Shown: positions 3 through 19,350 of the stretch, in pieces
Layout: each line of letters opens with the position of its first letter
Numbering within the stretch: position 1 is the first letter of the stretch
NCBI GenBank assembly: GCA_017501245.1
Contig: JAFVXI010000026.1
Coordinates: forward strand, 30,932 to 94,931
Direction of reading: 5' to 3'
DNA: 64,000 nt
From: Clostridia bacterium
GTDB taxonomy: Bacteria; Bacillota; Clostridia; Oscillospirales; CAG-272
Made by a program: the position numbers and the translations under genes
The notes under the pieces: model-generated
Told to the model about the DNA's origin: nothing
The model's input: only the letters and a program-made list of their open reading frames with translations
Databases searched by the model: none

Positions 3-1049
3 GTAAACGAGAGCTCTGCAATAGTTATTCCCGCAGACGGCGCAGTTACCGTTTGCAGCGGTCAGGCATCTTATGACTACTGCCTTGTACAGAACTCTCT
101 TCCTCAGAGCCGTATCGCTATCCTTCCCGAGATTGGTGAGGTAAGCGGATTTGAGTACGACACCGAGGGACAGCTTGACTTCGCAGAGCTCTTTGCACAG
201 GTTAAGGCTGAGCACCCCGGCATTAAGAGAATTGGCTTTATCGGCAGACTTATCTTCCCCTCAATCATTATGAAGAAGCTTGAGAAGGTATTCCCCGACG
301 CTGACATTGTTGACTTTGACGACGTTCACTACGAGCAGAGAATAATCAAGAGCGCAGCCGAGATTGAGTGCCTCAAGACCAACTGGGAGATGGTTAGCGA
401 GATGTTCACTAACGTCGTTCCCAAGATTGAGGTTGGCATGACCGAAAGACACATCGAGGGTATGTTTGAGGCAGAGATGATGCGTCTTGGCGCAGAGAGC
501 TACGTTCAGTCCTTCGCTCCTATGGTAGCGACCGGCCCTAAGAACTCCTACATAAGCATGTGCAGAAACACTCTCAGAAAGATTGAGGAGAGCGAGATTA
601 TCAACCTTGCGGCAGGCGTTTGCTACGAGGGATACAACGGAATTACCTGTAGCCCCCTTGTTCTTGGAGCAATTCCCCAGAAGATTAAGGACGCTGTAAG
701 CTGCGCTTACGAGGCTCTTAACTACGCATCTGCAAAGATGGCTCCCGGCACTCCCTGTGACGTAGTTCTTAATGCATACACCGATTACCTCACCAAGTAC
801 GGTTACATCGATTATTGTCCTTACGGAAGCCTTCACAGCACCGGTATGCTCGAGTGCGAGGCTCCTATCTTCTCGGTTGCTAACAAGAGAGTTATCGAGG
901 AGAATATGGCAATCTGCATCGACGCTTACTTCAAGGGTATGGAGTGGGGCTCGTTCCGTATTGAAGACTGCTACCTCATCGGTGCAAACGGCGCAAAGCG
1001 TATGACCACCTACAACGATAAGGCATTGCCCAAGATTTTCAAATTCTAA
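3..1049 (+). CDS. M24-family pita-bread fold protein (creatinase / Xaa-Pro peptidase-like), 5' end cut by the window edge
   Basis: Frame 3 is open from nt 3, so the ORF-track Met at 270 is internal. The C-terminal half shows M24-like motifs (RIIKSAAEIE, LHSTGMLECEAP, FRIEDCYLIG). The upstream part resembles a creatinase/prolidase N domain. Confidence 0.8.
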   Translation, partial: VNESSAIVIPADGAVTVCSGQASYDYCLVQNSLPQSRIAILPEIGEVSGFEYDTEGQLDFAELFAQVKAEHPGIKRIGFIGRLIFPSIIMKKLEKVFPDADIVDFDDVHYEQRIIKSAAEIECLKTNWEMVSEMFTNVVPKIEVGMTERHIEGMFEAEMMRLGAESYVQSFAPMVATGPKNSYISMCRNTLRKIEESEIINLAAGVCYEGYNGITCSPLVLGAIPQKIKDAVSCAYEALNYASAKMAPGTPCDVVLNAYTDYLTKYGYIDYCPYGSLHSTGMLECEAPIFSVANKRVIEENMAICIDAYFKGMEWGSFRIEDCYLIGANGAKRMTTYNDKALPKIFKF

Positions 1050-1061
1050 GGAGATTTTAAA

Positions 1062-1430
1062 ATGGAAAAGGGAAAAAACAATTGGGTCTTCTGTGACGGA
1101 TACCTTCCCCCTCACGGCAATGACCCCGAGTTCGAGGGCCACGAGGCTCTTATGATAACCAACCTTAACGATAAGACCGCAAATATAGAGCTTACCTTCA
1201 TCTTCGAGGACAGAGAGCCCGAGAAGGACATCAAGGTTACTCTTGACGGTATGAGAACCACTTGCATACGTCTTGACAAGCCTCTCGGCGACAAGGGCTT
1301 TATGCTTGGTGAGTCTGTTCAGTACACCGTTTGGGTACAGAGCGACGTTCCCGTTTGCGCTTGCTTTGGCAGACTTGACGTCCGTCAGACAAATATGTCT
1401 TATTACAGCGTAGAGGGATATTCTTTCTAA
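1062..1430 (+). CDS. ASRT-family protein (Anabaena sensory rhodopsin transducer-like, PF07100-type), copy A
   Basis: 122 aa. Motifs W-x4-DGYLPPHGNDPE, GHEALMI, IELTFIFEDREP, RTTCIRLD and QSDVPV..GRLDVRQ line up with ASRT/TM1070 as I recall them. AAGGAG overlaps the upstream stop, with a 12-nt gap. Confidence 0.8.
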   Translation: MEKGKNNWVFCDGYLPPHGNDPEFEGHEALMITNLNDKTANIELTFIFEDREPEKDIKVTLDGMRTTCIRLDKPLGDKGFMLGESVQYTVWVQSDVPVCACFGRLDVRQTNMSYYSVEGYSF

Positions 1431-1446
1431 TCTAATCAAAACAAAT

Positions 1447-1487
1447 GAGCCGCTTCCTCATTCCGAGGTCACGGCTCGTTTTTTTAT
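1447..1487. terminator. Hairpin with flanking T/A runs between convergent genes (probably bidirectional terminator)
   Basis: GAGCCG(1447-1452)...CGGCTC(1472-1477) with inner CCTC/GAGG pairing, followed by GTTTTTTTATT. The reverse strand is also T-rich after the stem. Confidence 0.5.
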
Positions 1488-2341
1488 TGTATGGTTTTTT
1501 GGTATGCAGACGGGGTTAATCCTATATGCTTCTTGAAAACCTTGGTAAAATAGGTCGGACTTTCGAATTTCAGTTGATTGGAAACAGAGGAGGGGGAGGC
1601 GCTCTCGCGCAGAAGCTCCTTTGCGCGCTGTATCTTCAGCTCTGTGTAATACTTCATAATAGAAGTGCCCGTGTTTTTCTTGAAAACGTTGTTTAAGAAG
1701 GTTTTGCTGTAAAAGGTATGTCGGCAAATGTCATCGAGCGTTATTCGTGCCTCCACGTTTTTCTTTAAAATGATAATTATATCATTTACGAGAGTGCTTT
1801 CAAACTCAACGCTGTTCATCACCATTTTAATATCGCTGCTTTGGTTTATAATATCGCGAGTCAGGTGTATGAGAAGCCTTTCTATGTTGTTTTCAACCAG
1901 CTGCTGCGCGCCAAAGGTGGGAGTGTCAAGAAGCTTAAGACGCCTCTCAAAAGGAAATGAAAAGGCTTTTTTAGACTCGCTAAGTATATCAGATACCAGA
2001 ACCCTTGAATTTTTGTCAAGGGATATTTTTTTATCGAAAACCGCAAGTATTTCCGAATTACTGCGGAAGCAAACGATGAATATAGCGGCGGGAGTGGCCT
2101 TTACTGCGGAATAGTAGTGCCGTGTCTGTCGGGGAATGAGCATAAAATCGCCTTGGTTCAAGACGGTTTCCTTTCCGTTCATGATGCACTTGATTTTTCC
2201 GCTGTCAATATAGGCAAACTCGTAAAAATCGTGCACTTCCTCAGGATAAGAAAAGTTAGAGGAGGTATCAAGATATTCTACGGTTATCAAGTTTTTAACG
2301 GATATGATTTTGTTTATCTGGTAGTTAAAATATTTCTTCAT
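1484..2341 (-). CDS. AraC-family transcriptional regulator with N-terminal cupin-type sensor domain
   Basis: C-terminal HTH_AraC signature (FYSKTFLNNVFKKNTGTSIMKYYTELKIQRAKELL...FESPTYFTKVFKKHIGLTPSAY). I prefer the ATG at 2341 because AAGGAAG lies 10 nt upstream. The GTG at 2350 has no usable spacing. Confidence 0.85.
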   Translation of the reverse strand: MKKYFNYQINKIISVKNLITVEYLDTSSNFSYPEEVHDFYEFAYIDSGKIKCIMNGKETVLNQGDFMLIPRQTRHYYSAVKATPAAIFIVCFRSNSEILAVFDKKISLDKNSRVLVSDILSESKKAFSFPFERRLKLLDTPTFGAQQLVENNIERLLIHLTRDIINQSSDIKMVMNSVEFESTLVNDIIIILKKNVEARITLDDICRHTFYSKTFLNNVFKKNTGTSIMKYYTELKIQRAKELLRESASPSSVSNQLKFESPTYFTKVFKKHIGLTPSAYQKTIQ

Positions 2342-2483
2342 ATCTACCACTCTTCCTTTATGCTATTTCATAATGAGTATAGCATACTTTTAGATCGTTT
2401 TCAAGCAATTTTGAAAAAAAGAGAAAAAATCGAATAGAAATTCAAATATTTTATTTTTTACCATTTTTGACACATTTTTTCCC

Positions 2484-2513
2484 TTGTTAATAAAAGCATG
2501 TAAATGTTATAAT
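2484..2513 (+). promoter_or_regulatory. SigA-type promoter candidate for the M81/M24/ASRT operon
   Basis: TTGTTA(2484-2489), 18 nt, TATAAT(2508-2513) with an extended -10 TGt. It lies in the AT-rich divergent region shared with the AraC gene. Confidence 0.5.
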
Positions 2514-2550
2514 TCAATTAGATAAACATAAAGTTTCAAAGGAGAAGGAT

Positions 2551-3951
2551 ATGGATATTATTATTGCCTCTTATCAATGCGAGTCTAACACTCTTGCAAC
2601 GCATCACCCAGGCAAAGAAGACTTTGAATATGCCGCCGGAGATGCCGTTTCGAGAAAGCTTGCCGTAACCGAGCTGTTTGAGAGGGAGGGCTTCACGGTC
2701 ATTCCTTCGATATACGCCGACGCGCTTCCCTCGGGTACTGTCGAGCAGGATATTCACGCATATTATTCCGAGCAGATTTTAGATACTGTCAGAGCCAACC
2801 CCGACGCCCACGGCGTATTTATCTTCTTCCACGGTAGTATGGAGGTTGACGGAATTGGAAGCGGAGAGCTCGATATTCTGAAGAAAATTCGCAAGATACT
2901 TAAAAATAAAAGCGCACTCATCGCCATCAGCCTTGACGCGCACGCTAATATAACCGACGAGCTCTGCGACTACGCCGACATTATCAGCGGATTTAAGACG
3001 ATACCTCACGTCGATCAGGCGGAGTGTCAGAGAAGATCTGCTGAGGCACTTTGCTACTGTCTCAAAAACTCGGTTAAGCCCTACTCGTATATGCAGAGAG
3101 TGCCCTTCTTACTTAAAAACGATACAGTTCAGACGGGATACGAGCCTCTTAAGAGCCTTATTGAAGAAACCAAACGCCTCGAGAGCACCGAGGATATACT
3201 TTGCGCGAACCTCTTCCTCGGTCACTGTTGGATAGACGCACCCAACACCTCTGCCTCCACGCTCGTAACCGCCTTGAAGCCCGAGGTAGCGCGCGACGTT
3301 GCAAAGGAGCTTGCAGTCAAGCTTTGGAACACAAGACGCGACTATAAGTTCACGGTTGAAGCCGAAGAGCCCGAGGAGTGCGTAAAGCGTGCTATCGAGG
3401 GCAAGGAGAGAAGAATATTCATTACCGACAGCGGAGATAACACCACCGCAGGAGCAGAGGGTGACACAACCGGAATACTTGAGCTCTTGCTTGCCGAAAA
3501 GCCCGAAAAGAAGGTCTGCGTTGCAGGTATAACCGATTTTGATACCGTTGACGGTCTTTGGAGCTGTGCTGACGGAGCGCAGGTTGAGCTTAAGAAGCTC
3601 GGCGTTTCGGGAGTCGTTAAGGCTCACGGTAAGGTTCTCGGCTGGACGGGAGAGTGCCTGGGACGCAGCCTTGCGGTTACCGTCGGAAACATCGACGTTA
3701 TATTCACCGACCTTCGCAGCTCCTACACGAGAAAGGAAAGCTTCGACGCCGCAAACGTCGATCTCCTCGCGTACGAGATAGTCGTAGTAAAGCTCGGCTA
3801 TCTTTTCACCGCCTTGAAGCCCTACGCCGACAGAGAGCTCTTCGCTCTTTCAGAGGGCTCTAGCTGTGTTGAGCTTAAAAAGCTCGGACTGAAGAGAATT
3901 CTTCGTCCTATGTTCCCACTTGACGAGTTTGAGTTTGACCCCTATAAATAA
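2551..3951 (+). CDS. M81-family (MlrC / microcystinase C-like) metallopeptidase
   Basis: 466 aa. N-terminal CESNTL (HETNTF-like), SLDAHAN and ITDSGDNTTAG motifs are typical of DUF1485 + MlrC_C proteins. AAGGAGAAGG SD. Confidence 0.75.
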   Translation: MDIIIASYQCESNTLATHHPGKEDFEYAAGDAVSRKLAVTELFEREGFTVIPSIYADALPSGTVEQDIHAYYSEQILDTVRANPDAHGVFIFFHGSMEVDGIGSGELDILKKIRKILKNKSALIAISLDAHANITDELCDYADIISGFKTIPHVDQAECQRRSAEALCYCLKNSVKPYSYMQRVPFLLKNDTVQTGYEPLKSLIEETKRLESTEDILCANLFLGHCWIDAPNTSASTLVTALKPEVARDVAKELAVKLWNTRRDYKFTVEAEEPEECVKRAIEGKERRIFITDSGDNTTAGAEGDTTGILELLLAEKPEKKVCVAGITDFDTVDGLWSCADGAQVELKKLGVSGVVKAHGKVLGWTGECLGRSLAVTVGNIDVIFTDLRSSYTRKESFDAANVDLLAYEIVVVKLGYLFTALKPYADRELFALSEGSSCVELKKLGLKRILRPMFPLDEFEFDPYK

Positions 3952-3985
3952 AATAAAAAACAAAATTATATAAAGGAGAAAAATC

Positions 3986-5157
3986 ATGGCTTATTACAAC
4001 AAACAGGAAACCGAAAAGAGAGTAGCGAAGGTTGTTGAGCTTCTTAACGAGAAGGACACCGATATTGCTATTATCTACTTTGACGAGCTTAACGTTGCTA
4101 ACGGCTGGTATCTTACCGGTTGGTGCGGACAGTTCGAGAAGGGTGCGGTTCTCGTAGGAAGAGATGGAACTACCATGCTTCTTGGCGGACCCGAGAGCGA
4201 GCCCTTTGCAAAGCAAGACTCGGCTATCACCGACGTACGTTGCTTCCCCGTATTTATGGTTCCCGACGAGGAGTATCCTCTCGCAACCATCATTAGCTTC
4301 AGCGACCTTTTCGCAGAGCTTACTAAGAAATTCCCCGTAAAGAGAGTCGGACTTGTAGGCACTACCGATATGCCCTACGCAGTACACGAGGACCTCGTAC
4401 GCGGCTTCGTTGGCTGTGAGCTTGTTGACCTCACCGACGACTATCTCAAGTTCCGTTACATAAAGAGTACTGGGAGGTAGAGCAGGCGAGAGCGGCTACA
4501 AGACTTGCATGCAAGGCGTACAAGGCAATGGCAGAGAAGGTAAAGGCAGGCAATAAGGAGTACGAGGTAGCGGCAGCAGGCGAAACAGTTTGCCGTGAGA
4601 ACGGAGCTGACAGCTTTGCTTACAGAACCATCGTAGGAAGCGGAATTCGTTCAAACGCAGTAGTTCCTACCGCAACCAACAAGGTAATGCAGGACGGCGA
4701 GATGGTAATGCTTGGTATCGCTCCCCGTATCAACGGCTACGCAGGTACCTTTGGACATACCGTTCCCGTAAGCGGCGAGTACACTCCCGAGCAGAAGAAG
4801 TGCCTTATCGATATGATTGAGGTTATGAAGCTCACTAAGAGCATGCTCAAAATCGGTAACACCGGACGTCAGATAGACGAGGTCGGCAGAGCGCTTTACG
4901 AAAAGGGCGGTTACCTCAAGTATCTCGTTTGTCCCTTCGCACACACTATGGGACTTATGGAGGCAGAAGCACCCTTCTTCGGACCTAACAGCGACGACGC
5001 GCTTGAGAAGAATATGATAGTCAACGTTGACGTTTCCTTCTTCGGACACCCCACTCTTCACGGACTTCGCGTAGAGACCTGCTACGTTATCACCGAGAAC
5101 GGCGCAGAGCCCCTTTGTCCTGAGTTTGAGGAAGAGCTTTTCAACTACGTAAAGTAA
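3986..5157 (+). pseudogene. M24-family pita-bread fold gene, copy B, interrupted by a frame change (frame 2 to frame 1) near 4462-4480
   Basis: ORFs 3986..4480 and 4528..5157 are the N and C halves of one M24-like protein. Frame 1 already reads KEYWEVEQARAATRLACKAYKAMAEKV from 4462. This completes the family motif R-x-IKS-xx-E-x-E that copy A has as RIIKSAAEIE. A single missing base or a -1 slip restores one 390-aa ORF. Confidence 0.75.
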
Positions 5158-5176
5158 TTTTAAAGGAGAAACAGAA

Positions 5177-5539
5177 ATGAACGGAAAGAAAAACTGGGTA
5201 TTTTGCGACGGTGACCTTCCTCCTCACGGAGATAATCCCGACTTCCTCGGCCACGAGGCGCTTATGATAACGAACGTAGGCAAAAAGGACGCAAAGATTC
5301 GCATCAAGGTAATCTTCGAGGATAAAGAGCCCTACGATAACATTACGATAGACCTCGGAGCAGAGAGAACCACCTGCCTTCGACTTGACTATCCTATCGG
5401 CAAGGAGCAGTATCAGATTCCCTTTGGTCAGTACGCGCTCCATATTAAGTCGAACGTTCCCGTTTGCGCTTGCTTTGGCAGACTTGACGTCCGTCAGACC
5501 AATATGGCTTATTACAGCCTTAGCGGATACGCGTTTTAA
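5177..5539 (+). CDS. ASRT-family protein (sensory rhodopsin transducer-like), copy B
   Basis: 120 aa paralogue of 1062..1430 (NWVFCDGDLPPHGDNPDF, GHEALMITN, NVPVCACFGRLDVRQTNMAYYS). AAGGAG SD, 19 nt after the upstream stop. Confidence 0.8.
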   Translation: MNGKKNWVFCDGDLPPHGDNPDFLGHEALMITNVGKKDAKIRIKVIFEDKEPYDNITIDLGAERTTCLRLDYPIGKEQYQIPFGQYALHIKSNVPVCACFGRLDVRQTNMAYYSLSGYAF

Positions 5540-5552
5540 TTGAATATCAGAA

Positions 5553-5593
5553 GAGCCAAGACCTCGAAAGAAGTCTTGGCTCGGTTTTTGTTT
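5553..5593 (+). terminator. Rho-independent terminator of the M81/M24/ASRT operon
   Basis: GAGCCAAGAC(5553-5562), 10-nt loop, GTCTTGGCTC(5573-5582), then GGTTTTTGTTTG. Confidence 0.8.
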
Positions 5594-5652
5594 GTAGGGA
5601 GTTGCGTCCCGCCCTATCTTTCGGGGTGCAACGCCATGCTTGCAAACGAGGC

Positions 5653-6381: not shown

Positions 6382-6456
6382 TGGCAGGGGTAGCTGGATT
6401 CGGACCAACGAATAAAGGAGTCAAAGTCCTTTGCCTTACCACTTGGCGATACCCCT
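6382..6456 (-). tRNA. tRNA-Gln (anticodon UUG), CCA encoded
   Basis: The reverse complement reads AGGGGTATCGCCAAGTGGTAAGGCAAAGGACTTTGACTCCTTTATTCGTTGGTCCGAATCCAGCTACCCCTGCCA. It has a 7-bp acceptor stem and anticodon loop CUUUGAC, and closely resembles E. coli tRNA-Gln. Confidence 0.93.
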
Positions 6457-7832: not shown

Positions 7833-7907
7833 GCTGGTGTGGCTCAATGGCAGAGCAGCTGATTTGTAATCAGCAGGTTGTTGGTTCGACTCCGATCACC
7901 AGCTCCA
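7833..7907 (+). tRNA. tRNA-Thr (anticodon UGU), CCA encoded
   Basis: GCTGGTG...CACCAGC acceptor stem, anticodon arm GCTGA-TTTGTAA-TCAGC, T-loop TTCGACT, 75 nt. Confidence 0.92.
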
Positions 7908-7915
7908 TGATTAAT

Positions 7916-8000
7916 GGGGGAATTCCCGAGCGGCCAAAGGGGGCAGACTGTAAATCTGTTGTCACTGACTTCGCTGGTCCGAATCCAGCTTCCCCCACCA
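7916..8000 (+). tRNA. tRNA-Tyr (anticodon GUA), class II with long variable arm, CCA encoded
   Basis: GGGGGAA...TTCCCCC acceptor stem, anticodon loop CTGTAAA, long variable arm, 85 nt. It resembles E. coli tRNA-Tyr. Confidence 0.92.
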
Positions 8001-17539: not shown

Positions 17540-17661
17540 AATATATGCGTGTTTTATGCGCAATAAAAATACACACGCAGCGAGTGTGTGAGTCGCCGGT
17601 GCTCGGAATCGGGTCGCGCCTCTGTGTCGCTGCGGTGGAAAAAACCAAGGAGGAACATAAA

Positions 17662-18393
17662 ATGTTCGAAATTACTATCAAGCAGCTGCTTGAAGCGGGC
17701 GTTCACTTCGGTCACCCCACCAAGAAGTGGAACCCCAAGATGGCTGAGTACATCTTTACTCAGAGAAACGGTATTCACATCGTAGACCTTCAGAAGACCG
17801 TTAAGAAGTTCGAGGAGGCTTACAACTTTGTTGCCGAGCTTGCTCAGGAGGGCGGCACCGTTCTCTTCATCGGTACTAAGAAGCAGGCAGCCGAGACCGT
17901 TAAGGAAGAGGCTGGCAGATGCGGCATGTACTACACCAACGTTCGTTGGCCCGGCGGTATGCTCACCAACTTCCAGACTATCCGTAAGTCCATCAAGCGC
18001 CTTAAGGATCTTGAGAAGATGCAGGCAGACGGAACCTTCGATCTTCTTCCCAAGAAGGAAGTAGCTAAGAAGCTTAAGGAGATCGAGGATCTTGAGAAGT
18101 CCTACGGCGGTATCAAGGATATGGACACCCTTCCTTCCTGCGTATTTGTTGTAGACACCCGCAAGGAGAGAAACGCTGTTCTCGAGGCTAAGAAGCTTGG
18201 CATTCCCGTAGTTGCAATCGTTGACACTAACTGTGATCCCGACGATGCTGACTACATCATCCCCGGTAACGATGACGCTATCCGCGCTATCAAGCTTATC
18301 GCCGGCGCTCTTGCTGATGCTGTTATCGCAGCTCGCGGCGGTGCTGACGAGGTTGCTGTTGAGGCAGAGGCTGACGAGACCGTTTCCGAGTAA
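17662..18393 (+). CDS. rpsB: 30S ribosomal protein S2
   Basis: [27 protein letters not shown]... AGGAGG SD 6-7 nt upstream of the ATG at 17662. The ORF-track start at 17545 is an upstream in-frame extension. Confidence 0.95.
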
Positions 18394-18429
18394 TTTAACC
18401 CTTCGATTAAAATTTAAGGAGATATTAAA

Positions 18430-19350
18430 ATGGCTGAGATTAGTGCAAAGGCCGTTGCCGAGCTCAGAAAGCAGACCGGCTGCGGCATGATGGACTGCAA
18501 GAATGCTCTTAAGGACGCTAACGGCGATTTCGAGGCAGCTGTAAAGCTTCTTCGTGAGAAGGGCATGGCTGCAACCGCAAAGAAGGCTGACAGAATTGCA
18601 GCTGAGGGACTCGTTGATATCATGACTATCGGCGACGTTACCGCTATGGTTGAGGTTAACTCCGAGACCGACTTCGTTGCTAAGAATGCGATCTTCCAGG
18701 AGTTCGTTAAGAACGTTCTTAAGACCGTTATCGTAAACAAGCCCGCTGATGTTGAGGCTCTTCTTGCTTGCAAGATGGCTGACGGCGAGGGCACCGTTGC
18801 AGAGGCTCTCACCGAGCATACCTACAAGATCGGCGAGAAGCTTTCTATCCGTCGCTTCGTTATCGTTGACGGCGTTGTTTCCACCTACATCCACGGTCTT
18901 GGTAACACCGGTGTTATCATCAACTTCGAGACCGACGTTGCAGAGAAGGACGGCTTTGCAGAGTGCGCAAAGAACATCGCTCTTCAGGTAGCTGCTATGT
19001 CCGTTGCTTACCTTGACAAGGAGTCCGTTCCCGCATCCGTTCTCGCTGAGGAGAAGAGCATCCTCATCAAGCAGATGCAGCAGGATCCCAAGATGGCAAA
19101 CAAGCCCGAGCAGGTTCTCGCTAAGATCGTTGAGGGCAAGCTTGGTAAGTTCTATGAGAACAACTGCCTTCTTGAGCAGGCTTACGTTAAGGACGATTCT
19201 CTTTCCGTTGCTAAGTACGTTGCAGGCGTTGCAAAGGAGCTTGGCGGCTCTATCAAGGTTATCGGCTTTGTTCGTTACGACAAGGGCGAGGGTATTGAGA
19301 AGAGAGAGGACGATCTCGCAGCTGAGGTTGCTAAGATGGTTCAGGGCTGA
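18430..19350 (+). CDS. tsf: Translation elongation factor Ts
   Basis: MAEISAKAVAELRKQTGCGMMDCKNALKDANGDFEAAVKLLREKG (UBA-like N-terminus) and a typical EF-Ts core. Confidence 0.95.
   Translation: MAEISAKAVAELRKQTGCGMMDCKNALKDANGDFEAAVKLLREKGMAATAKKADRIAAEGLVDIMTIGDVTAMVEVNSETDFVAKNAIFQEFVKNVLKTVIVNKPADVEALLACKMADGEGTVAEALTEHTYKIGEKLSIRRFVIVDGVVSTYIHGLGNTGVIINFETDVAEKDGFAECAKNIALQVAAMSVAYLDKESVPASVLAEEKSILIKQMQQDPKMANKPEQVLAKIVEGKLGKFYENNCLLEQAYVKDDSLSVAKYVAGVAKELGGSIKVIGFVRYDKGEGIEKREDDLAAEVAKMVQG

Follow-up and report, generated by a model that had tools for sequence, protein, structure and literature searches.

The ASRT family of small proteins (PF07100), named after the Anabaena sensory rhodopsin transducer, has been solved structurally, but its function has been unsettled since 2003-2007, and the sole general proposal, that of a sugar sensor, is a computational one. 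In the part of the 2009 study used here (De Souza, Iyer & Aravind, 2009; PMC2739507), stand-alone members were predicted to be sugar-binding sensors that act through protein-protein contacts in sugar operons; the contexts given include isomerase/aldolase/kinase genes, an ATP-binding cassette (ABC) transporter, an amylase, a pyruvate decarboxylase and a dehydratase, and M24 proteins are not mentioned in that part of the text. A stretch of 64,000 nucleotides from a Clostridia bacterium (contig JAFVXI010000026.1, positions 30,932 to 94,931), called the window below, carries two ASRT genes, ASRT1 and ASRT2. These belong to the end of one catabolic operon (A) and to the whole of a second one (B), and each operon is built around a conserved, probably translationally coupled pair of an M24 gene and an ASRT gene. 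We find a real, strongly conserved module, in which a known family of small proteins stands in a new context, together with a distinctive and probably mis-annotated clade of M24 proteins. Many ASRT lineages near ASRT1 and ASRT2 are locked to this one M24 clade, which is without the dinuclear metal site. No paper linking ASRT/PF07100 with M24, M81 or PTE proteins was found in the literature, nor any published description of what a preliminary description of this DNA had called an uncharacterised catabolic module.

The protein-coding genes of the two operons within the window are as follows.

3..1049, + strand: M24a, cut by the window start (Peptidase_M24 PF00557, 7e-30, 104.7 bits)
1062..1430, + strand: ASRT1, 122 aa (ASRT PF07100, 7e-27, 94.2 bits)
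2551..3951, + strand: M81-family (MlrC-like) protein, 466 aa, first gene of operon B (DUF1485, 9.7e-68; MlrC_C, 1.5e-25)
3986..5157, + strand: M24b, frameshifted, with open reading frames 3986..4480 (Creatinase_N, 3e-7) and 4459/4528..5157 (Peptidase_M24, 1.9e-32, 113.2 bits)
5177..5539, + strand: ASRT2, 120 aa (PF07100, 3.9e-25, 88.6 bits)

All Pfam matches of the module genes lie far above their thresholds (the gathering score is 25 bits for PF07100 and 23 bits for PF00557), and the PF07100 match spans profile positions 2-118 of 119. ASRT1 and ASRT2 are true members of PF07100, and the profile search (7e-27 and about 4e-25) bore out the earlier placing of the small proteins in the ASRT/TM1070 family. 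The six open reading frames first reported for the region were recovered at the same coordinates, save that 3986..5157, then taken as one intact gene, splits into 3986..4480 and 4528..5157. The M24-like nature of 3..1049 was likewise recovered; the window holds only the C-terminal 348 of its 398 codons, and the operon continues upstream. In two contigs that are 91% identical (L001 and L002), the order is AraC2, two paralogous proteins without a family (234 and 263 aa), a PTE-family protein, M24a and ASRT1. The gap from M24a to ASRT1 is 12 nt and that from M24b to ASRT2 is 19 nt; a GGAG motif overlaps the stop codon of M24a (TAAGGAG) and a second GGAG lies just 3' of the M24b stop, so that both the spacing and the Shine-Dalgarno sequences on or beside the upstream stop codons are as first described. 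Judged on their N-terminal sequences, the module proteins have no obvious signal peptide.

We surveyed the linkage of the two genes from both sides. An ASRT alignment was searched against 185,579 species genomes and returned 429 relatives, and the best 80 of these were analysed. All 80 are from metagenome-assembled genomes and are 75-91% identical, and nearly all are labelled as gut Clostridia (Oscillospiraceae, Acutalibacteraceae, Christensenellaceae, Lachnospiraceae and others). Among the 73 loci with room upstream, M24a stands directly upstream of ASRT1 in 61, at a median gap of 12.5 nt; the order M24a-PTE-ASRT1 is found in three and other neighbours in eight (GH20, GH39, a giant carbohydrate-binding module protein, a D-Ser-dehydratase-like protein and others). 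One further locus (L022:8538-10369) has the order AraC-M81-ASRT without M24, and its ASRT gene, 82% identical, is of the ASRT1 type, which indicates that ASRT partners can be swapped between module types. The conserved core of operon A consists of AraC2, the 263-aa protein in some cases, PTE, M24a and ASRT1. The second survey was a metagenome scan anchored on M24b and blind to ASRT, which gave 80 loci at 56-95% identity. Where at least 420 nt were available on both sides (55 loci), an ASRT gene lies directly downstream of M24b in 40, directly upstream in five and nearby in two. With flanks of at least 1.9 kb on both sides, ASRT is present in 25 of 26 loci and M81 in 22 of 26, and ASRT also adjoins all three further M24b homologues that were found on long contigs (66-85% identity).

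The association extends to distant members of the family. Five ASRT lineages that are 36-47% identical to ASRT1 (P0129, P0132, P0133, P0136 and P0141) have an M24 gene of the same type directly upstream, the M24 partners of distant lineages being 25-67% identical; a sixth, P0138, does not, and the link thus holds in five of the six informative lineages, a set that leaves aside P0153, a classic-type ASRT on a contig of 788 nt. With 419 clusters among 1.84 billion representatives, the ASRT family is so rare that chance adjacency to M24 is negligible, and the association must be deep and non-random. Altogether the surveys returned the pairing at about 120 genome and metagenome loci, mostly amid genes of sugar utilisation, and direct adjacency in 61/73 and 45/55 testable loci upholds the earlier view that it goes beyond chance. 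We conclude that the M24-ASRT adjacency is strongly conserved and not a matter of chance. That it should be fortuitous, or an artefact of annotation, has a probability close to nil, given that it is seen in more than 100 independent loci and in two differently anchored surveys, at identities as low as 36% for ASRT and about 25% for M24, and given the strength of the Pfam matches. A simple co-divergence of M24 and ASRT finds no support: in a midpoint-rooted neighbour-joining tree the ASRT partners of M24a form one tight clade, whereas those of M24b are diverse and non-monophyletic.

We then turned to the M24 proteins themselves. Both consist of a Creatinase_N domain followed by the pita-bread (M24) domain; for M24a this architecture is complete in a full-length 398-aa orthologue present in L001 and as the protein P0389. 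The metal ligands were mapped by alignment to the prolidases of P. furiosus and P. horikoshii, and in 57 M24a and 114 M24b sequences the five positions (P. furiosus numbering) read as follows.

D209: A or G in M24a; G in M24b
D220: I or V in M24a; T in M24b
H284: H in M24a; H in M24b
E313: D in M24a; D in M24b
E327: E in M24a; E in M24b

The window proteins themselves read A/I/H/D/E (M24a) and G/T/H/D/E (M24b). The pattern is without exception (57/57 and 114/114): both Asp ligands are replaced and a His/Asp/Glu triad is kept. The 74 full-length M24b proteins of the metagenome set read G-[T/V]-H-D-E, and more distant ASRT-linked M24 proteins have the same D and E together with an ExE(A/S)P motif. 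With the bridging Asp lost, the canonical dinuclear centre cannot form, and since both Asp ligands are missing, M24a and M24b are not canonical Xaa-Pro or methionyl peptidases. On alignment, then, they are best described as members of the M24 fold that are not canonical metallopeptidases, and the site may hold a single metal (bound by His/Asp/Glu) or be metal-free. With two of the five ligands absent, they are not ordinary peptidases.

Profile and structure comparisons gave a similar picture. The best scores against the NCBIfam equivalogs for Xaa-Pro dipeptidase and aminopeptidase P were 81.6 and 90.8 bits, compared with cut-offs of 393-630, and the PepQ, aminopeptidase P and DoeA models are all far below their cut-offs for both proteins. 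An AlphaFold2 model of P0389 (pLDDT, the predicted local distance difference test, 82; pTM, the predicted template modelling score, 0.83) has prolidases, creatinases and the ectoine hydrolase EutD as its nearest folds, with template modelling scores of 0.73-0.81 to prolidases and creatinases. In public databases M24a and M24b proteins are named 'aminopeptidase P family protein', a label that is probably misleading for the M24-ASRT clade. Extra M24-like paralogues, 26-31% identical, adjoin the M24-ASRT pair in four loci (L066:7434-8522, L155:5799-7067, L157:5626-6798 and L174:1497-3879), which points to a wider clade of ASRT-associated M24 proteins that has several sub-specificities.

The reading frame of M24b is broken at about position 4468, with a stop codon at 4478-4480. 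The contig L003, which is 99.96% identical over 5.3 kb, has AGCGAC where the window has AGTAC and encodes an intact M24b of 390 aa, as do L001 and L002. Since L003 is intact at the same site, the break is either a recent, strain-specific pseudogene or an assembly error rather than a programmed event; programmed frameshifting was rejected as there is no slippery heptamer and the near-identical contig is in the intact frame. M24a and M24b are only 23% identical and must represent two old lineages, not a recent duplication. The locus had been described as carrying duplicated paralogue sets: there are indeed two M24-ASRT pairs, and the ASRT proteins are 60% identical, but for the M24 proteins the relatedness was overstated.

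The higher similarity of the ASRT pair has in part a local cause. Two copies of a 65-nt tract are present:

1345..1409, + strand: 65-nt tract, copy 1, within ASRT1 (DNA alignment, blastn)
5454..5518, + strand: 65-nt tract, copy 2, within ASRT2 (DNA alignment, blastn)

The copies are identical at 63/65 positions and have no synonymous differences, whereas outside the tract ASRT1 and ASRT2 are about 65% identical. Across 73 species, synonymous sites in the tract are no more conserved than elsewhere, and a functional element at the nucleotide level was rejected on this ground; intragenomic gene conversion between ASRT1 and ASRT2 is therefore the probable origin of the tract, and it would account for part of the difference between the ASRT pair (60%) and the M24 pair (23%).

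By sequence, ASRT1 and ASRT2 match the solved structures 2ii7 (7e-17 for ASRT1) and 1nc7 (5e-14 for ASRT1). A model of the ASRT protein (AlphaFold2; core pLDDT 72-92, termini poor) has the eight-stranded beta-sandwich fold of these structures and matched only 2ii7, 2ii8, 2ii9, 2iia and 1nc7 at E <1e-3, and the next-best folds, at E >0.08, are carbohydrate-binding modules. The strand-2 motif of ASRT1 is GHEALMITN, in which His, Glu and Asn are kept and Met stands at the position of TM1070 Cys29. This pocket Cys, part of the SHEshChhN signature as given in the part of PMC2739507 used here, is replaced by Met in both ASRT1 and ASRT2, as it is in close relatives of the two, and the ligand of ASRT1 and ASRT2 therefore probably differs from that of TM1070. 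Across the family D12, H27, E28, N34, R65, Y88 and R104 are near-invariant and are kept whatever the neighbouring genes. The window has no rhodopsin-like open reading frame (the best tblastn match, with a bacteriorhodopsin sequence as query, has E 3.7), as the preliminary description had said, and there is none among the called genes of related loci; with no rhodopsin gene, the name 'transducer' does not apply functionally to ASRT1 and ASRT2. In one protein of the family (P0140, 325 aa), an ASRT domain is naturally fused to the C-terminal end of a Mac/hexapeptide sugar O-acetyltransferase.

Each pair is accompanied by a second hydrolase, PTE/PTER-like with pair A (just upstream of the window in relatives) and M81/MlrC-like with pair B. 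Among solved structures, the PTE-like protein that accompanies M24a-ASRT1 is matched best by PTER (9efa, 2e-46), an enzyme that hydrolyses N-acetyltaurine (PMC11374699), and two PTE sub-types (identity classes of about 38% and about 66%) alternate among loci. The M81 protein has both domains of its family (DUF1485, 229 bits; MlrC_C, 90.9 bits) and matches 3iuu (5e-23) and 7ylq (9e-17) in the PDB. Because it scores 66 bits against the NCBIfam model for the microcystinase MlrC, for which the cut-off is 999, it is classed here as a family member and not as an orthologue of MlrC. M81 accompanies M24b in 43/80 loci, many of the loci being too short to show it. In 11 loci PTE-M24a-ASRT1 is accompanied by a well-conserved family of about 260 aa that has 54 invariant columns (reported for L001:2101-2805 and 2874-3665, in tandem, and for L012, L017, L018, L026, L045, L048, L059, L061, L075 and L080), and a gene of this family probably lies just upstream of the window. 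For the recurrent 263-aa partner of operon A, searches of Pfam, NCBIfam and the PDB gave no match; recurrent partners of 712, 713 and 817 aa have no Pfam or NCBIfam family and, for those searched, no PDB match.

The wider neighbourhoods point to sugars. Near modules of type B (M81-M24b-ASRT) we found LacI regulators in 15 loci and AraC regulators in 17, and parts of CUT2-type monosaccharide ABC transporters (ATPase in 13 loci, permease in 10, binding protein in 7). Other neighbours are GH20b/DUF4838 and SDR proteins, Mac acetyltransferases (free Mac-type genes near M24b-ASRT in five loci), MFS transporters, rhaM and CUT1 permeases. Type A modules are accompanied by PTE-family proteins, DUF4838, GDSL esterases, a PIG-L deacetylase, a NagB-like protein and GHL6, and one distant lineage has the order substrate-binding protein, PIG-L, M24, ASRT, GH9-N. 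Neither a peptide transporter of the Opp/Dpp type nor mlrA or mlrB was seen in any surveyed locus. Given neighbours such as LacI, ABC transporters, GH20-like proteins, PIG-L, rhaM and acetyltransferases, sugar-linked substrates fit better than the peptides or amino-acid derivatives proposed in the preliminary description.

Codon usage was compared by a crude codon adaptation index (CAI), with rpsB, tsf and frr as reference genes. The values are 0.61 for M24a, 0.59 for ASRT1, 0.54-0.55 for M24b, 0.48 for ASRT2, 0.41 for the M81 gene and 0.32 for the AraC gene. Those of M24a, ASRT1 and M24b are the highest among the non-reference genes scored, level with transketolase, and this codon bias is consistent with high expression. 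The earlier remark on a codon usage like that of rpsB and tsf is thus borne out for the most part, but the statement that ATA is hardly used fails for ASRT1.

From this material we propose that the two operons are cytoplasmic cassettes in which sugar derivatives are stripped of their amide-linked groups and in which ASRT serves the M24 enzyme as a partner that binds a ligand. An imported sugar derivative with amide-linked substituents would induce the AraC regulator; the M24-type hydrolase and the second amidohydrolase (PTE/PTER-like or M81) would then remove the substituents in sequence, and ASRT, binding the sugar moiety of either substrate or product, would work alongside the M24 enzyme as its partner in specificity or regulation. 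We give this proposal a probability of roughly 45%. We observed directly which genes are present, that their linkage is conserved, that metal ligands have been lost and that the neighbourhoods are related to sugars; the class of the substrate, the order of the reactions and a physical contact between M24 and ASRT are what we infer from the data. Several findings weigh against it. The conserved core of operon A contains no transporter, the substrate class rests on neighbours that vary from locus to locus, and M24 and M81 are peptidase families, such that the substrate may be purely peptidic. In 9/73 loci an ASRT of this subfamily has no M24 next to it, ASRT is absent nearby in 8/55 M24b loci, and the gene order is variable. 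No M24-ASRT fusion was found among the multidomain proteins, the only ones checked, of 150 listed family representatives, and the mirror-tree correlation of M24b with ASRT (r 0.65-0.76) is not above that of M24b with M81 (0.85). Finally, operon B may be decaying in the window genome, M24b being frameshifted.

A stronger version of the proposal would make ASRT an obligate partner, which turns a metal-depleted M24 scaffold into a two-component hydrolase of sugar-amide conjugates. The occurrence of ASRT without an adjacent M24 indicates that it is not an obligate M24 subunit, and we regard this version as unlikely. Were it true, the module would represent an unrecognised enzyme class that is abundant in gut and fermenter Clostridia and would provide the first biochemical function for the ASRT family, the Anabaena 'rhodopsin transducer' then being a co-opted member of a family of enzyme accessories. 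A serious alternative, though less likely than the partner model, is that M24 and ASRT share a pathway without forming a complex. ASRT would then be a small enzyme or carrier in its own right, for example an anomerase- or isomerase-like or a ligand-buffering protein, working on the sugar that the M24 step releases or consumes, with adjacency serving co-expression alone. The near-invariant polar residues, retained regardless of neighbours, speak for such an independent role, as do ASRT proteins of the same subfamily beside GH20, GH39, M81 or transporters without M24, the variable order (ASRT upstream in five loci, M24a-PTE-ASRT in three) and the frequent location of ASRT next to mutarotase genes of the rhaM type, whose products are typical of small accessories for the handling of sugars. 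However, where rhaM adjoins, a second mutarotase-like function looks redundant; no catalytic activity of any ASRT protein is reported in the literature we found, and a tight, deep linkage to one M24 clade, with median gaps of 12-15 nt, is more typical of subunits.

A module for peptides or amino-acid derivatives, in which an unusual non-glycosylated peptide or N-acyl amino acid is the substrate of M81 and M24, acting in turn as peptidases or amidases, and is also the ligand of ASRT in place of a sugar, appears improbable. MlrC, the only characterised M81 member, does cleave unusual peptides, prolidases are the closest sequence relatives of the M24 proteins, PTER-type enzymes hydrolyse compounds that resemble N-acetyl amino acids, and the operon A core has neither a glycoside hydrolase nor a sugar transporter. 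The dinuclear peptidase centre is nevertheless dismantled, none of the surveyed loci has an Opp/Dpp-type transporter, and the accessory genes are overwhelmingly sugar-related (LacI, CUT2/CUT1 ABC transporters, GH20-like proteins, PIG-L, rhaM and Mac acetyltransferase). Anabaena ASRT binds and loops DNA in vitro (PMC8660804), and ASRT1 and ASRT2 could by analogy be transcriptional regulators of their operons. We hold this to be very improbable, as each operon comes with an AraC or LacI regulator of its own, ASRT has no recognisable DNA-binding domain and a fold that resembles carbohydrate-binding modules, and its gene is the last of a codon-biased enzyme operon, with a CAI close to that of its enzyme partner and unlike that of the AraC gene (0.32).

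The remaining features of the locus concern its control and its borders.

1443..1481, both strands: bidirectional intrinsic terminator where ASRT1 and the AraC gene converge (RNA fold; T-runs on both sides)
1484..2341, - strand: AraC-family regulator with cupin sensor and HTH_18 domain, divergent from the M81 operon (Pfam)
2342..2550, no strand assigned: AT-rich divergent control region, its function inferred (consensus scan)
5553..5595, + strand: intrinsic terminator ending operon B (RNA fold)

The AraC protein has the build of the AraC/XylS regulators, a cupin ligand domain at the N-terminus and a double HTH at the C-terminus, and scores 1.4e-18 (67 bits) for HTH_18, 52 bits for HTH_AraC, 3.9e-10 (40 bits) for Cupin_2 and 1.4e-9 (38 bits) for AraC_binding. 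The same arrangement is found in L001-L003, L092 and L102-L109, and operon A in relatives has its own AraC gene upstream. The hairpin at 1443..1481 (-21.0 kcal/mol, z -5.7 on the + strand; -20.8 kcal/mol, z -4.3 on the - strand) is predicted to terminate both operon A and the convergent AraC gene. Operon B ends, as first described, in a strong terminator, made up of a hairpin at 5553..5582 and a U-tract to 5595, with a 10-bp GC-rich stem and a GAAA-capped extension (-21.9 kcal/mol, z -3.5; 0/200 shuffles equally stable). In a consensus scan, promoter-like sites were found within 2342..2550 on the + strand at 2484..2513 (TTGTTA-18-TATAAT with TG) and on the - strand at 2404..2376.

Homology to L001 and L002 stops right after the ASRT2 stop codon (window position 5547 onward), and the module thus lies in different chromosomal contexts in close relatives. 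The downstream genes are RDD, tRNA-Gln and EamA in the window, compared with LRR, TilS-like, amidase and FtsK genes in L001 and L002. Three tRNA genes, tRNA-Gln(ttg) at 6382..6456 (-), tRNA-Thr(tgt) at 7833..7907 (+) and tRNA-Tyr(gta) at 7916..8000 (+), lie 0.8-2.5 kb downstream of the module. Long antisense open reading frames run opposite M24a/ASRT1 (261..1439, - strand, 392 aa) and opposite rpsB (17554..18894, - strand, 446 aa); both are probably artefacts of sense-strand codon usage and not genes, and the latter displaced rpsB in a naive longest-frame gene call.

Close relatives of the module genes occur in many uncultured gut Clostridia. With this wide occurrence, and with a codon usage in the window that points to high expression, the substrate may be a common compound that comes from the diet or the host. 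The locus matters for three questions: what ASRT does, how a mis-annotated clade of enzymes should be seen, and what the M81 family, so far almost uncharacterised, may do.

How does the module compare with described systems? With the ASRT/TM1070 family, placed in the 'ASRAH' superfamily in the part of PMC2739507 used here, ASRT1 and ASRT2 share the single-domain beta-sandwich of about 120 aa, the conserved W, the strand-2 H-E and the turn Asn, and they resemble the stand-alone members predicted there in being sited in sugar-related operons. They differ from TM1070 in having Met for C29 and Cys for Gln100, and from the contexts given in that part of the text in that their main neighbour is a ligand-depleted M24 protein together with an M81 or PTE hydrolase. 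Likeness to the PTER/PHP-type phosphotriesterase-related amidohydrolases belongs to the PTE partner of relatives, whose gene lies outside the window. The microcystinase MlrC (M81; 7ylq) shares both M81 domains with the window protein, which is, however, only a distant family member and comes from an anaerobic gut bacterium. Prolidases and Xaa-Pro aminopeptidases of M24B (P. furiosus 1pv9, P. horikoshii 1wy2) are the best sequence and structure matches of the M24 proteins, but the HxGxxxHExP region reads HxxG(M/L)xExE(A/S)P in M24a and M24b.

The non-peptidase members of M24 offer a further comparison. Creatinase (1chm, 1kp0) and EutD/DoeA (6twk) share the Creatinase_N and pita-bread architecture with the M24 proteins described here, at template modelling scores of about 0.8, and the departure of M24a and M24b from the canonical dinuclear peptidase site is in line with creatinase, which is metal-free. 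The likeness to creatinase is at the level of the fold, with no sequence match at E <=1e-5. M24a and M24b score 37-48 bits (1e-9 to 1e-12) against the NCBIfam DoeA models, compared with cut-offs of 575-613, and their similarity to prolidases is stronger. Genes of ectoine or creatine pathways were not seen near the module, although no search was aimed at them. To judge by the title of a 2020 report from Mais et al., EutD reportedly acts as a complex with a second amidohydrolase, the deacetylase EutE. The EutD-EutE pair may thus be taken as a formal analogue of M24 with PTE or M81, and the module described here, unlike the creatinase and EutD systems, adds an ASRT partner to the M24 protein.

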